A stretch of DNA of 64,000 bases from a virus. Lineage: Duplodnaviria; Heunggongvirae; Uroviricota; Caudoviricetes. Shown here piece by piece: positions 5,576 through 41,124 of this stretch (its first letter is position 1; every line of letters starts with the position of its first letter). The stretch lies in the IMG/VR virus record IMGVR_UViG_3300032167_002310. One strand, 5' to 3'. A program made the position numbers and the translations under genes. A model generated the notes under the pieces. The model was not told where the DNA came from and did not search any database. It saw only the letters and a list, made by a program, of their open reading frames with translations.

Positions 5576-5989
5576 TTACTCAGCGTCAGCAACCTGTGCG
5601 ATTCTGTAAGACTGAACCTTACGAGCCTTAACGCCCTCGCCGCCAGGGATAGTCTTCTCAGCCTTTTCAGCCACACCAGCCTTAACGAGTGCGTTCAAGC
5701 GATATGCAACCTTAGCAGTAGTCACATCTTCGCCCTCGATGCAGGCAGTAACCTCGGCGATAGTCTGATACTCATCAGTGAGAACATTCTCAACTGCGAT
5801 AGTGAGCTCGTCAGCCTCAGCCTTCTTGTTAGCAGCGGCTTCCTTAGCCTTAGCAGCCTTCTTCTCGAGCAGAGCAATCTCGTTGCCCACGAACTCAGTG
5901 AGCATATCAGCATCTGCATGGTCGGAAGTGGCGAGAATGTCGAGAATCATTGCGAACTTGTCTTTCTTAGTAATCTTAGCGTTAGTCAT
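5576..5989 (-). CDS. winged-HTH DNA-binding protein (distant paralog of the 19972/20833/24558 family)
   Basis: N-terminal KITKKDKF...EIALLEKK helix plus C-terminal YQTIAEV...KVAYRLNALVKAGVAEK wHTH pattern. Confidence 0.65.
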   Translation of the reverse strand: MTNAKITKKDKFAMILDILATSDHADADMLTEFVGNEIALLEKKAAKAKEAAANKKAEADELTIAVENVLTDEYQTIAEVTACIEGEDVTTAKVAYRLNALVKAGVAEKAEKTIPGGEGVKARKVQSYRIAQVADAE

Positions 5990-6087
5990 AGTCTTTGTAC
6001 CTCTTTCTATAATTTTTTTTGATTTTGAGTTAAGGTTTTTTCTTTACCTTACATATATATTATAACATTTTTTTTTGAAAAAATCAA

Positions 6088-7689
6088 TTAGTTCTTATGA
6101 TGCTTTAGGAACCATTCCATATCAGCCTCATCACAGAGGTCGAACAATTCTCGACCTCTCTCGGTCAGCTCCCCAAGTCGTACATAGTACAGCTCACGCC
6201 AGAAGCTACCATAACGATGGAACTCACGATTTTTAGGGTCAATGGTGAAGAACTTGCTGAACTGTTCATCACTCACATTAAAGTCGTCATAGATATCATC
6301 CAGACAAACTCGAACGGAGTAAGGACACTCACGGTCATTCAGCTTCTCTTCGGGGAAGTCGTCCGGAATTACATTCAGAGTCACGAAGTTGGAATCGTGA
6401 TGTTCCCTGCCGGACACAGGGCACTCTGCGACGTGCTCGTCATAACAGTAGTCACAGTAGCAGCTACCATCAACTTCGACTGCATCGTCAGGGTTGATGC
6501 GGTTGTCACAGCAGCAGCAGTAGACATAGTCAGAGCAGCTGTTGCAAGTCAGAGGCTCTTCACCATCGAAGTCCACATCGGAACGGCCGCAGTACATACA
6601 TACTTCCGGACCGGAGTAGTTGAACTGGTACTTGTGCTCATATACACTCTCCGGATTAGCAGTCACACGAATCTGGTGAGAGCAAGAGCCGAAGTCATTG
6701 TACATAGTGTCGCACCAGAACTGGAACTTCCAATTCTCGCCATCCACCTGGAACCAGTTTTCGTGTTCCATAGTGTAAACCTGCTCCTTGTATTCCCAAC
6801 CGAGGTTCTTCTGAGCCAGAGCGCAGAGCCAGTTGATAACCTCGTTAGCCAGACCGTCGTGGCAGTAAGGGTAACCCTTAACACCAACAACGCACTCGGG
6901 CTGAACGATGAAGAGCTGACGCCACTTCTTGTTGTTCCAGTACTTGTCGTAGAAACGCATATCTTCCTTAGCACGGAGATAAGCAACCACGACACACTCG
7001 GAGTTCATCATCTCAACAGTACCACGGCGATAGCAACCCGTATTACGCCAAGACATACAAGAGTCCCAGTCGCAATCGTTGTCGCTCATGGTCATATAGT
7101 CCATAGGATGGATAGAGATGCAGAGTTCGCCTTTCAGCATCTTCTGGTTCAATACACGAGAGTGGCACAGACGGAACTCTTCAAAGCCGTCCACATTCCA
7201 CGCCTGTGCAATCTTGCCGAGAATCTTAACTGGCTTGCAACCACGCTGAACCTGAATAGGCTTGCCATCATTAGGCACATTGACAGTGAAGCTGTCGCCC
7301 TCATAACTGTTGCGAGCGAGGTAGTAAGAGCTGAACAGGTCCATGATGCACCAACGATTGACGCCCATTTCACGCCAGTTGCGGTCAACGCAGTTGCTCA
7401 GATTCATATAGAAAGGACGCATGGAAGGACCGTCCTCACGGAAGCTGAGCAGTTCGCCAATCTCACGCTCCATATCGCCGGCTTCCTTGACAACGGTGAT
7501 GTCCTTGGAGAGAATGAGATTTTCGCCCATCAGCTTGAACAGACGAGCCTTATTGGAGTTCCAATAACGAAGAATGTACTCAAGGGAGGCTTTGGAGCCG
7601 CCACAGTTTACTTCGTCGAGTGCGTAGTCAGAAATCCACGCTTCAATCAGTTCCTTATCGGCCGCAGCCAAAACTTCCTTAAATAACAT
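6088..7689 (-). CDS. phage protein with SxHPxD...WxSC core domain and zinc ribbons (paralog of 367-1779)
   Basis: 533 aa; ISIHPMDYMTMSDN, WDSCM, CxxC repeats. Confidence 0.75.
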   Translation of the reverse strand: MLFKEVLAAADKELIEAWISDYALDEVNCGGSKASLEYILRYWNSNKARLFKLMGENLILSKDITVVKEAGDMEREIGELLSFREDGPSMRPFYMNLSNCVDRNWREMGVNRWCIMDLFSSYYLARNSYEGDSFTVNVPNDGKPIQVQRGCKPVKILGKIAQAWNVDGFEEFRLCHSRVLNQKMLKGELCISIHPMDYMTMSDNDCDWDSCMSWRNTGCYRRGTVEMMNSECVVVAYLRAKEDMRFYDKYWNNKKWRQLFIVQPECVVGVKGYPYCHDGLANEVINWLCALAQKNLGWEYKEQVYTMEHENWFQVDGENWKFQFWCDTMYNDFGSCSHQIRVTANPESVYEHKYQFNYSGPEVCMYCGRSDVDFDGEEPLTCNSCSDYVYCCCCDNRINPDDAVEVDGSCYCDYCYDEHVAECPVSGREHHDSNFVTLNVIPDDFPEEKLNDRECPYSVRVCLDDIYDDFNVSDEQFSKFFTIDPKNREFHRYGSFWRELYYVRLGELTERGRELFDLCDEADMEWFLKHHKN

Positions 7690-11977: not shown

Positions 11978-12251
11978 TGACAATTACCTCCTTATATCTG
12001 GGGAAAGTATCAGCCAGAAAGCTGATGATGCAGTTTTCCAGACGAATGTGCTCTTCGTTCTGCCAAGAAGCGCCGGTGTATTCAACGGGACCATCTTCCC
12101 AACTGTAACGCTTATACACATCGTTCATATACTGGTCGCCAAACATAATCTGGCGCAAATCGCAGACACGGAAATCATTTCCATAATGAGAAACCATCGC
12201 GTCCTGCAGGTCATAAATATCAATTATCGGCAGAATCTCGTACTTCATCAT
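11964..12251 (-). CDS. hypothetical protein
   Basis: 95 aa ORF; AAGGAG RBS. Confidence 0.7.
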   Translation of the reverse strand: MMKYEILPIIDIYDLQDAMVSHYGNDFRVCDLRQIMFGDQYMNDVYKRYSWEDGPVEYTGASWQNEEHIRLENCIISFLADTFPRYKEVIVNVAW

Positions 12252-15054: not shown

Positions 15055-15146
15055 AGACTTGTACTCTCCTTTTATTTCTGTTAAAATTTTTCGGCATTTT
15101 TAAAGTTTGTCAATTTTTCGTGACGGAACGAAAATTGACGGCACCG

Positions 15147-15458
15147 TTAGGAAACTCTGCAATATACATATAGTGACGGATTAGGATATTTTGCTATGAT
15201 GTCGGGTATTGCAGCGAGGATTTTTGCAAAGTCTTCGAAAGGCAATGCGATTTCATCGGTATTCATCTCGTCAGACTCGCCGCAATCACAACCATACTGC
15301 TTTACACCGACAAAGTAATCTCCGCCGTAACCATAACAGTCGGTCTGAATGCCGTATTCATCTTTGATTTCGTCGGGGAGTTCATCATATCGTCCCTGCT
15401 TCAGTTTCCAACCGTAAACAACACCTGCTGAATAATCTACTGACATATTATCTACCAT
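15147..15458 (-). CDS. hypothetical protein
   Basis: 103 aa immediately downstream of a repeated promoter. Confidence 0.7.
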   Translation of the reverse strand: MVDNMSVDYSAGVVYGWKLKQGRYDELPDEIKDEYGIQTDCYGYGGDYFVGVKQYGCDCGESDEMNTDEIALPFEDFAKILAAIPDIIAKYPNPSLYVYCRVS

Positions 15459-15711
15459 CCTTTTACTTTATATATATATTATAACATATTATTTTGTAAA
15501 AATCAACTGCGGAGATTTTTGTTAAAATTTTGTACATCTTATTGAGTTGTTAAAATTTTGTACATCTCTATAATTGTTAAAAAAATGTGTTAAATTTTTA
15601 GACACCTTGATATTTTGTTAAAATTTTGTACATCTATATAAATGGGTAGATTCTGTTAACCCATTAACAACTTTGTTCATATATTATGTATGGCAAAGGA
15701 GGAATAGTTGC

Positions 15712-16326
15712 ATGCTTGAAATGAAAAGGGACTCTCGTCAGGTCCCGAAGGTAAAACAGATTTGTGCTGATAAGAGATATTATGACATTCTCTATGCTCA
15801 CCTTCAGTGCATTTCTTCTTATGACGAAAAGACTGGTGAGAGAACTGTTGGGAAGAAAGAGATTAACTTCTCAAAGTTATCTGCCATGTTTAATATGAGC
15901 CGTCAGACAGTTTCTAAGAAGTTTAACAATCTCGTAGATTTAGGGCTCGTCACGAAGAAAGACGAGAATTCGTTTTTAATTCTACCTTTGGCGAATGATA
16001 TCGCTTCACTCGTGCCATATAAGACTTTGAAACTGATTACTGATACATTAAGTGAGCACAGTATTAATACATATGTGTATCTATTTAATAGATACTATGC
16101 AACTGGTTGTAAAGCATTCCAGTTCACATTGGCTCAAGTGAAAGAGAATATTGGAATTTGTTCTACAACAAGAAGTAACGATGATACTATTACGAATATT
16201 CTTTATGTATTGGAGAAATTGGGACTGATTAAATACCATATGACTACAAAGGAACAGGACGATACTTCATTTAAGAATATCAAGACAATCTATGAATTAG
16301 AATGGCTTACGAATGAGATTTGTTAA
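15712..16326 (+). CDS. tandem winged-helix DNA-binding protein, putative replication initiator or regulator
   Basis: ATG after AGGAGG; HTH FSKLSAMFNMSRQTVSKKFNNLVDLGLV and a second wHTH FTLAQVKENIG...ILYVLEKLGLIKY; flanked by iteron-like repeats. Confidence 0.6.
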   Translation: MLEMKRDSRQVPKVKQICADKRYYDILYAHLQCISSYDEKTGERTVGKKEINFSKLSAMFNMSRQTVSKKFNNLVDLGLVTKKDENSFLILPLANDIASLVPYKTLKLITDTLSEHSINTYVYLFNRYYATGCKAFQFTLAQVKENIGICSTTRSNDDTITNILYVLEKLGLIKYHMTTKEQDDTSFKNIKTIYELEWLTNEIC

Positions 16327-16571
16327 AAATTTAGACACCTATATAAAAGTGTTAAAATTTTGTACATCTAAGCAATGTGTTAAAAATTTTCGGCAATAGT
16401 TGTTAAAAATTTTCGGCAAAATCGGCATTTTTGTTAAAAAAATAGTATCCTATTAAATAATAATAGAGAGTGGCTCAATAGTGGGGAAGGATTAAAAATC
16501 CTTCGGACCTTCGGTCCTCAGGCTTTTATAATCCTTCCTTAGCGAGCTCGTTTCGCGTGGGAGGATCGGCG

Positions 16572-16787
16572 ATGCAAGTTAAGTTTAAATGGGGAACAAA
16601 GGAACAGATTTTAGACCTTATGAAAGTAAGACCAAGTATTACTGAAGCCGAGGTATACTTTGATAAGGAAGATGGTAGCCTTTATGTTGTATCTTTCAAA
16701 AGGAAAAATGAAAATCCTGTCGGATTTTCTACAAAAACTTCGTTTGAAGATTATATATATCAACAGTTAAATGAAATTGAAAACTGA
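16572..16787 (+). CDS. hypothetical protein
   Basis: ATG after GGAGGA RBS. Confidence 0.6.
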   Translation: MQVKFKWGTKEQILDLMKVRPSITEAEVYFDKEDGSLYVVSFKRKNENPVGFSTKTSFEDYIYQQLNEIEN

Positions 16788-16801
16788 ATTGAAAAATCGG
16801 T

Positions 16802-16830
16802 TTGATTTTCAAATGAAAATATGATATAAT
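16802..16830 (+). promoter_or_regulatory. sigmaA-type promoter for 16913-17335
   Basis: TTGATT-N17-TATAAT. Confidence 0.7.
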
Positions 16831-16912
16831 ATAAGTAAAGAAATAGAAAAATGAATTGAAAATTCATTCCCATTTCGAAAAATGAAATGAAAAAAACGAA
16901 AGGAAAAATGAG

Positions 16913-17335
16913 ATGGAACATATTGGTAAGTATAAAGGATATAATGTATATAAGACTCCAAAGAGTGAGATGAAGAAAGACCAGGAAAAAGGAGTGCTTT
17001 ACGCAGTTGCTGAGACTGGTGAACTGATTCTTAATGGAGAAGTTGTTGGTAAGGTGGCGTTTGCGTCTGGCTCTGTTACTGAGTATGATGACCATCGTTG
17101 TTATGCTTATAAATATCCAGTTGAACGCGAAGCGGTCAAGACTTATAAATATGAAGATAATGTACCAGTAAGTAAGCCTGGTAGGGGTAAGCGCAGAGAA
17201 GTTGCAGTTGATGATGTGTTGAAGAGCACGGTTGTTGACCCTACAGATTTAGATAAGATGATTAATGATTTCATCATTGCCGCACGTAATATGGAGATTA
17301 CCGATTTAGTTGGTGAGTTTAAGGCCGAGGTTTAA
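16913..17335 (+). CDS. hypothetical protein
   Basis: 140 aa ORF with own promoter and downstream hairpin/U-tract. Confidence 0.75.
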   Translation: MEHIGKYKGYNVYKTPKSEMKKDQEKGVLYAVAETGELILNGEVVGKVAFASGSVTEYDDHRCYAYKYPVEREAVKTYKYEDNVPVSKPGRGKRREVAVDDVLKSTVVDPTDLDKMINDFIIAARNMEITDLVGEFKAEV

Positions 17336-39453: not shown

Positions 39454-41124
39454 TTGGAAGAGATTAGAGAAAATCCTCTCTACGAGCCAAGTAGACAGGA
39501 CGCTATTCACTCCAAAGGCTTTGATATGGGAGGAACTACTCGTTACGGTAAGATGAAGGTCGGAGTAAAATCGCTCGATGATGCCGTATTGAATCTGGGC
39601 AGTTTGAAACATGCAACCCGCTTCAGAATTGATAAGGCTGCGATTTATCGTGCCTTGTACGATAATGACACCGAGCAATTAAGAGAAATCTCAAATTACT
39701 TTTATAAAACAAGTGGTATCTATAAACGCGTTTGTGAATATTTCGCAAATATGTACAGATGGGACTGGTATATTGTTCCAGAGATTTTTGATGATGCTGT
39801 CAAGGAAGATAAGATTATTAAGGATTTCCAAAAGATGCTTGACTTCCTTGACTCCACTCACATCAAGTTGATGTGTGACAATATTGCACTTAGTGTAATC
39901 AAAAATGGTTGCTATTATGGTTATATTGTCCCAAGTGGAAATGGTATCATTCTCCAGGAACTTCCTATTAAGTACTGTCGAGTAAGATACTTTATTGGTA
40001 ATAAGCCGGCAATTGAATTCAATATGAAATTTTTCGATAATGAATTCCCCGACACTGTTTACCGTATGAAAGTTCTAAAAATGTTCCCAGAAGAGTTTGC
40101 TAAGGGTTATATGGCTTACAAACAGGGAAGATTAAAGCCTGATTATAGTGAAACAAGAACCATTGACAGTAGATTGCGCACCGATCTTCTCGGCGACACT
40201 GGCTGGTATCTTCTTGACCCAGACAGCACTGTCAAATTTAGTTTTGGAAATGGTGGAAGTGGTAACGGAAATGATATTCCTTTGTTTATCAATGCTATTC
40301 CAGCCATCCTTGACTTAGACGCGGCGCAGGATTTAGACCGCCGCAAGCAGATGCAAAAGTTGTTGAAAATTATTGTTCAGAAACTTCCTATGGATAAAAA
40401 TGGCGATTTGATTTTCGACGTGGATGAAGCAAGAGATATCCATAATAATGCAGTACAAATGTTACGTAATGCTATTGGTGTTGACGTTTTGACAACATTT
40501 GCGGACATCGACTCCGTGGATACTTCAGACAAGACTACAAGCACTTCTACCGATGAACTTGAGCGTGTAGAGCGTGCGGTATATAACTCTTTCGGTGTTT
40601 CAAATAACTTATTTAATACTGATGGTAACTTAAGTCTTGAGAAATCAATTTTGTCAGACGAAGCAAGTATGAGAACATTACTTTTGCAATTCCATATATT
40701 TTTCAATGATGTTGTGCAACAGCTCAACACTCAAAGGAAGAAATATAAATTTAAATTCTATATGTTAGAAACTACTCAATACAACTATAAGGAACTTTCC
40801 AAGTTGTATAAAGAGCAAGTTCAAATGGGCTATTCTAAGATGTTGCCTCAGATTGCTCTTGGTCATACCCAGAGTGCGATTTTGGCTACTGCTAAGTTTG
40901 AGAATGAGATTTTGAAGTTGAGTGAAGTTATGATTCCTCCACTTATGTCTTCTACTATGAAAATGGAAGATTTAAAAGGCGGGGGCGAAAATAATAAATC
41001 AGTCTCAAACAATTCTCAAAAAGTATCAGAAGGGAATTCTTCAGAAAAGCAAGCCGGTCGACCAGAAAAGGCAGACGACCAGAAAAGTGAAAAAACCATT
41101 CAAAATAAAGAATCTATGAGTTAA
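39454..41124 (+). CDS. portal protein
   Basis: 556 aa after terminase; TTG start behind AGGAGGT; position and size. Confidence 0.8.
   Translation: MEEIRENPLYEPSRQDAIHSKGFDMGGTTRYGKMKVGVKSLDDAVLNLGSLKHATRFRIDKAAIYRALYDNDTEQLREISNYFYKTSGIYKRVCEYFANMYRWDWYIVPEIFDDAVKEDKIIKDFQKMLDFLDSTHIKLMCDNIALSVIKNGCYYGYIVPSGNGIILQELPIKYCRVRYFIGNKPAIEFNMKFFDNEFPDTVYRMKVLKMFPEEFAKGYMAYKQGRLKPDYSETRTIDSRLRTDLLGDTGWYLLDPDSTVKFSFGNGGSGNGNDIPLFINAIPAILDLDAAQDLDRRKQMQKLLKIIVQKLPMDKNGDLIFDVDEARDIHNNAVQMLRNAIGVDVLTTFADIDSVDTSDKTTSTSTDELERVERAVYNSFGVSNNLFNTDGNLSLEKSILSDEASMRTLLLQFHIFFNDVVQQLNTQRKKYKFKFYMLETTQYNYKELSKLYKEQVQMGYSKMLPQIALGHTQSAILATAKFENEILKLSEVMIPPLMSSTMKMEDLKGGGENNKSVSNNSQKVSEGNSSEKQAGRPEKADDQKSEKTIQNKESMS

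Follow-up and report, generated by a model that had tools for sequence, protein, structure and literature searches.

A tandem winged-helix gene between one-way repeat arrays is a candidate replication origin in a large phage

A 1.35-kb locus in the 192-kb genome of a gut phage contains the gene of a 204-aa tandem winged-helix protein, P0001, bracketed by direct repeats of a single orientation. Because its layout and the predicted fold of its protein resemble those of plasmid initiators, this locus is the best candidate for the replication origin of the phage. We put the probability that it is this origin, with an origin-binding initiator arranged on the plan of iteron plasmids, at about one half. 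Use of the origin would probably be lytic and not plasmid-like.

Results

One-way repeats confined to a single locus

The window (the whole stretch of 64,000 bp that was analysed) corresponds to positions 65246-129245, minus strand, of a 191,974-bp genome record estimated to be 98% complete; the two differ by one base, at window position 39930. An exact 20-mer was found four times in the window (15520, 15548, 15616 and 16350), always on the plus strand, compared with 0.06 copies expected by chance. A 12-mer core, TGTTAAAWWWTT, was present in nine copies compared with 0.47 expected, all on the plus strand between 15079 and 16412, and no copy was detected outside this interval on either strand of the whole phage genome. 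Two looser copies with an all-A spacer, at 15575 and 16432, bring the total to eleven, all co-oriented. The original prediction had described about eleven co-oriented iteron-like repeats on both sides of 15712-16326, including a 20-mer present four times, and both counts were confirmed. It had also placed the gene's own TAA inside a repeat, and this stop codon (16324-16326) indeed falls within the copy at 16321. The 5' half is common to the copies, and the 3' half is GTACATCT in four, AGACACCT in two, TCGGCA in three and AGTATCCT in one.

The upstream array (15520-15635, plus strand) consists of full 20-mers at 15520, 15548, 15588 and 15616 with a period of 27-28 bp, together with the eleventh member of the set, a 13-bp half copy at 15575 that is placed 13 bp before a full copy. 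The downstream array (16321-16451, plus strand) holds the copies at 16321, 16350, 16378, 16401 and 16432; its period is 23-31 bp in the window and 22-23 bp in several relatives, and its last copy doubles as a promoter-like TTGTTA-17-TTAAAT. An outlying copy (15079-15098, plus strand), with a TTTTCGGCA-type 3' half, lies between two leftward genes and is absent from L002, an 83%-identical relative. Adjoining this copy, between the same two genes, is a stem-loop, GTCAATTTTTCGT ... ACGAAAATTGAC, at 15107-15137.

An inverted repeat, an unstable tract and a hairpin at the locus

Just before the ribosome-binding site, 43 bp 5' of the start codon, we found an inverted repeat, TGTTAA-N4-TTAACA (15654-15669), that was missing from the original prediction. 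It reuses the conserved half of the direct repeat, being built from its first six bases, overlaps the -35 element of a weak promoter-like site and is kept in eight main-clade loci. This inverted repeat is a candidate operator. The AT-rich tract that had been predicted 3' of the gene is present, and AT-rich DNA also precedes the upstream array. This preceding tract (15443-15519), which adjoins the array and is conserved in relatives, is a candidate unwinding element. Together, the tract and the upstream array (15443-15642) are, by nearest-neighbour energy, the 200 bp with the lowest duplex stability in the genome, the repeats themselves being AT-rich. Inside the tract is a strong leftward sigma-A promoter with a TG element (TTGATT-17-TATAAT, 15506 to 15478). 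No DnaA box was found near the locus; the nearest boxes with one mismatch are at 12112 and 23219, and their count in the window is below chance expectation.

On the 3' side of the last copy lies a long hairpin with an A/T-rich outer and a G/C inner stem (16482-16541, plus strand; -29.3 kcal/mol, z -4.9), preceded by the promoter-like last copy and by a conserved AATAGAG. Of the 17 loci examined, most have a hairpin of completely different sequence at this position, and about 11 have it clearly, including L004, L013, L016, L019, L020, L022, L024, L027 and L031. The structure may serve as a hairpin at the 5' end of an RNA, as a primer or as a signal for single-strand initiation; Rfam gave nothing meaningful at the hairpin or the repeats. 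Behind it, on the same strand, is a 71-aa gene without an assigned function (16572-16787), and a similar small gene follows in L002 and L016. A 16-nt direct repeat (GAAAAATGAATTGAAA type, 16779-16918) is present four times between the 71-aa gene and a 140-aa gene, around a consensus rightward promoter at 16802-16830.

These signals can also be read with no role in replication. P0001 would then be a local, self-regulating transcription factor with operator arrays, a small switch at the border of two promoter regimes that acts on its own promoter, on the leftward promoter at 15506-15478 and on the downstream promoter that fires through the hairpin to the 71-aa and 140-aa genes. A -10-like hexamer does follow several copies at the distance usual in promoters, as in TTGTTA-16-TATAAT at 15547-15574 and in the last downstream copy, and the overlap of the inverted repeat with a promoter-like -35 also favours this reading. 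However, eleven one-way direct repeats far exceed the needs of self-regulation, regulators usually bind palindromes, and the motif is absent from the many other promoters of the phage. We therefore consider a purely regulatory locus somewhat unlikely, although it is the strongest of the competing explanations. The absence of the motif from the rest of the genome led us to reject a global regulator.

The predicted fold of P0001 resembles plasmid initiators

The gene (15712-16326, plus strand, with the ribosome-binding site AAGGAGG at 15697-15703) opposes leftward genes on both flanks, in agreement with the earlier statement that it is transcribed against its surroundings. In a model of P0001, for which the alignment was built from 64 family sequences, the protein has two winged-helix units, each opening with a strand (pLDDT 95.5, pTM 0.90), so that the two units already recognized from the letters reappear in a confident prediction. 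When this model was compared with the PDB using Foldseek, the top matches were R6K pi bound to iteron DNA (2nra_C, E 2.5e-4) and numerous entries for RepE54, with probabilities of 0.99-1.0. A search independent of Foldseek returned pi with Z 7.2 over 178 residues and RctB domains 2-3 with Z 6.3, and all its other matches are single winged helices. In a second structural comparison, RepE54 reached Z 7.5-8.4 with 175-184 residues aligned colinearly between residues 5 and 204. Over the two comparisons, the RctB match spanned 170-172 residues with Z 6.3-7.6. Among the fold matches listed, only RepE54, pi and RctB extend over about 170-184 residues. The scores of the initiator folds are middling (Z about 8, r.m.s.d. 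5-6 Å), and single winged-helix matches tie with them. At this level the modelled protein is Rep-like over its full length, as had been anticipated. Proteins labelled replication initiator or replication protein O are among its viral structural neighbours, and DnaD_N/HTH_36 clusters among its Atlas neighbours. A homodimer prediction for P0001 scored 0.22 against a mark of 0.42 and speaks neither for nor against a dimer on the inverted repeat.

The likeness to Rep or RepA proteins, which held for the fold, did not extend to sequence profiles. Rep3_N matched neither P0001 nor anything else in the whole genome at E values up to 10, with positive controls, and hhalign of the P0001 family against a RepE-family profile, whose alignment was built from the F plasmid gene, gave a probability of 0.4%. 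By sequence, P0001 is not a member of Rep_3 (PF01051 Rep3_N plus PF21205 Rep3_C). Pfam yielded sub-threshold winged-helix families only, at residues 50-90, and these are of regulator type, which favours a transcription factor. On the other hand, the full-length fold matches are initiators and not two-domain regulators, which argues against one.

Relatives keep the layout, and site and protein change together

P0001 belongs to a family of several hundred sequence clusters, nearly all from large uncultured phages of the gut or rumen. We collected 279 close clusters, on contigs of up to 220 kb, and 363 representatives at the 50% identity level, which in nearly every case are about 200 aa long. 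No experimental description of this family was found in the literature. Phage and plasmid collections gave one weak phage match and one plasmid match, and the genome collection gave one Clostridia MAG contig. Down to about 50% identity, the loci of relatives drawn from public assemblies and IMG/VR follow a single order. A strong leftward promoter within an AT-rich tract comes first, then between four and eight full copies spaced 27-28 bp apart, one of which has a half copy 13 bp in front of it; these are followed by inverted half-sites about 50 bp 5' of the start codon, the gene, three to five downstream copies and a long hairpin. The upstream-array pattern is common to L002, L004, L008, L012, L013, L016 and L024. 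The 3'-half types of the downstream copies are kept by position, as graded operators of a regulator would be.

Homologs at 29-38% identity also have direct repeats that flank the gene. In one distant clade (L019-L022, 31-33% identity) the repeats are of the TGGTCAAAA type with a period of 22-23 bp, and the first recognition helix reads RKT compared with the nearly invariant RQT elsewhere. The joint change of repeat and recognition helix in this clade indicates that the site changes together with the protein. The second recognition helix is far more variable across the family, and the 3' half of the repeat is likewise variable. From these few independent clades we infer, on sequence comparison, that domain 1 probably reads the conserved half of the repeat and domain 2 the variable half. 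Covariation of site and protein fits a repressor with its operators equally well, but the 22-23 bp spacing of the distant clade leaves no room for a promoter in each unit. The idea that every repeat is a promoter was rejected because of this spacing and because the -10-like hexamers are not kept between relatives.

Several further observations were made in the relatives. The L004 homolog (6001-6615) can be translated in full only if TAG encodes glutamine: five or more TAG codons lie in its reading frame, including one at the nearly invariant Gln10. L027 has a second, unrelated tandem array of four 21-bp units (TGGATATTGTTTAGAA type, 1417-1521) about 200 bp 3' of the homolog and its own repeats. 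RNA-library contigs over 10-22 kb were low-depth contigs of relatives and offered no depth profile, and one 308-nt RNA-library piece lies inside the gene, where DNA carry-over is possible.

A plasmid carries a family member beside a Rep_3 replicon

The sole plasmid match of the family, pRGI00117 (L035), is a 7,167-bp circular plasmid. Its gene is a true family member (hhalign probability 99%, E 4.5e-18) and is followed by three 23-bp tandem repeats, a AATAGTAT box and a short hairpin. A canonical Rep_3 gene on the same plasmid (Rep3_N 1.6e-33 plus Rep3_C) is closely preceded by three 22-bp iterons of its own; the two repeat-plus-binder units of the plasmid lie at 1186-2099 and 5963-6740. The presence of a canonical Rep_3 replicon beside the family member means that the family need not supply a replicon's initiator; on this plasmid it could be either a second replicon or accessory. 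This arrangement brought our confidence in an origin down to about one half, with a regulator or a stability element as live alternatives. Adjoining a complete replicon, the family member looks accessory, as a regulator would, and the repressor with multiple operators that the original prediction offered as its alternative is kept alive by this case. Coexistence with a Rep_3 replicon is also how a stability function would show itself. If the phage locus is a regulator or stability element instead, the plasmid is a lead to follow.

The same plasmid suggests a more elaborate form of the origin reading, which we hold to be improbable. Initiator, repeats, promoter and hairpin would form a portable origin cassette that recruits the DnaB, DnaG and DnaE of the phage without DnaA and whose specificity is swapped between phages, and the pRGI00117 copy would serve satellite-like amplification by an infecting phage.

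The phage has its own replisome and lacks recognizable maintenance genes

The phage encodes a DnaB-like helicase, a primase, a RecJ-like nuclease, a Sak4-like annealase, a Dda-like helicase and a 1293-aa DnaE-type polymerase. No other initiator was found in the phage, and none is annotated in its replication module. GC skew had been suggested as an indicator of an origin at the repeats. Its genome-wide minimum is instead at about 34.5 kb in the window, where gene direction switches, and the repeat locus shows a small local rise only. Since the skew tracks gene direction, it neither supports nor excludes an origin at the locus.

Profiles of integrases, resolvases, CbiA, AAA_31 (ParA), ParB_N and Tubulin gave no match in the genome, the record of which is 98% complete. 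Plasmid-like maintenance, which had been proposed as a possible use of the origin, is therefore left without support, and a lytic origin is the likelier use. The same results bear on a further explanation, in which the repeats are a centromere-like or DNA-anchoring site and P0001 its binding protein, the two forming a single-protein segregation or positioning system. Motor-less plasmid systems use direct repeats beside the gene of a winged-helix or helix-turn-helix protein, and here direct-repeat arrays flank the gene of a probable binder. Moreover, residues 18-196 match phrog_3396 in PHROGs (E 1.1e-14), a family labelled ScpB, a two-winged-helix segregation protein, the label being an annotation. 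However, ScpB was not among the fold matches listed, and neither were TubR or ParR-type proteins; no ParA (CbiA, AAA_31), ParB or tubulin family accompanies the gene in this genome; and with no lysogeny or plasmid genes the phage has nothing obvious to segregate. A segregation function is thus doubtful. We think it very unlikely that the locus is another kind of cis-acting site, such as a packaging site recognized by a small-terminase-like protein, or an element that acts as a decoy for related phages or excludes them: site specificity does differ between related phages, as for self/non-self elements, but the weak PHROG match to a small terminase family (E 6e-4, residues 45-74) covers a generic helix-turn-helix only, the modelled fold appears to be of a two-domain monomer type and not that of a terminase ring, and the structural genes begin about 19 kb away, at about 35 kb in the window.

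Discussion

Iteron origins with two-winged-helix initiators are textbook knowledge for plasmids (PMC4980987). The present case adds a site that is unique genome-wide, a clade in which a changed site meets a changed helix, a genome in which lysogeny and partition genes were not found, and the reservation raised by the plasmid.

If the locus is the lytic origin of the phage, we infer that it could work as follows. Each 20-bp direct repeat would be occupied by a single 204-aa molecule through both of its winged-helix domains, of which the first would read the conserved half, TGTTAAAA, and the other the variable half. Once loaded, the upstream array would open the adjacent, very unstable AT-rich DNA, and the opened DNA would admit the DnaB-like helicase, the primase and the DnaE polymerase of the phage. 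Two molecules on the inverted half-sites may shut off the gene's own promoter. The downstream array might titrate the protein or pair with the upstream array; alternatively, it may set the protein at the promoter that fires into the hairpin, and this could provide a primer.

Mini-F (ori2/RepE) offers the closest comparison for the order of parts. When read with the same tools, it shows four iterons, an inverted repeat that shares eight bases with them, repE and five more iterons. The phage locus has the same succession of AT-rich DNA, direct repeats, an inverted repeat sharing the repeat's first bases, gene and second array, and its protein, like RepE and R6K pi, has two winged helices, is of similar size and can be aligned with them structurally, in the same order, over its full length. 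There are also clear differences. A relation to RepE at the sequence level is absent, and the protein has 204 aa compared with 251 aa; the upstream period is 27-28 bp compared with about 22 bp in F; the downstream copies are co-oriented here, whereas they are inverted in F; DnaA boxes are absent; and the host replicon is a large, apparently virulent phage that itself encodes a helicase, a primase and a polymerase. RepE reads the conserved half-site with its second domain (PMC4980987), whereas in P0001 the first domain seemingly does so.

Other systems share individual features. T4 oriE has 12-nt iterons and the proteins RepEA and RepEB, and the role of its iterons is still undefined (PMC3016281). 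As at the locus described here, evenly spaced direct repeats cluster there at a candidate origin, the phage is large and virulent, and the direction of transcription changes nearby (PMC3016281). In T4, however, a link between the iterons and origin activity is not established and no tandem winged-helix binder is known (PMC3016281), whereas the repeats here bracket the gene of a probable binder. RctB of Vibrio cholerae chromosome 2 has a two-winged-helix core (domains 2-3) that resembles plasmid initiators, although it serves a bacterial chromosome and, with four domains, is far larger (PMC5397143). P0001 also resembles lambda O and DnaD-like initiators, in which an N-terminal winged helix binds repeats, and has weak PHROG matches to them as well as the replication protein O and DnaD_N neighbours. 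Initiators of this type are longer, and the lambda repeats lie within the O gene. P0001, on the contrary, consists of two DNA-binding domains only, with the repeats outside its gene.

In favour of an origin we count the unique one-way repeats, the mini-F-like order of parts, a confident model with pi and RepE54 as top matches and with RepE54, pi and RctB as the only full-length ones, the replication-labelled neighbours, the layout kept in relatives, the RKT/TGGTCAAAA clade, the least stable 200 bp of the genome and a replisome of the phage's own with no annotated initiator. Against it we count the lack of Rep_3 membership by sequence, the middling fold scores, the missing DnaA boxes, a 27-28 bp period compared with about 22 bp in classical iterons, downstream copies co-oriented unlike those of F, a GC-skew minimum elsewhere, an AT-rich tract that doubles as an ordinary strong promoter, and pRGI00117. 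The proposal of a RepE/RepA-type initiator with its iterons is therefore supported in part: the layout, the predicted fold, the candidate inverted-repeat operator and the second array fit it, and Rep_3 sequence membership and DnaA boxes are lacking.

Should the locus prove to be an origin, it would give a first handle on how replication starts in these DnaE-type phages of Clostridia, yield a compact unit of origin and initiator from which shuttle or reporter constructs could be built, and mean that the two-winged-helix iteron design exists beyond the Rep_3 sequence family.

As a minor observation on the replication genes, a 174-aa gene of phrog_4680 (G000:C1:10009-10533, L033) ends where the gene of the DnaB-like helicase starts, and its product is a candidate helicase loader.
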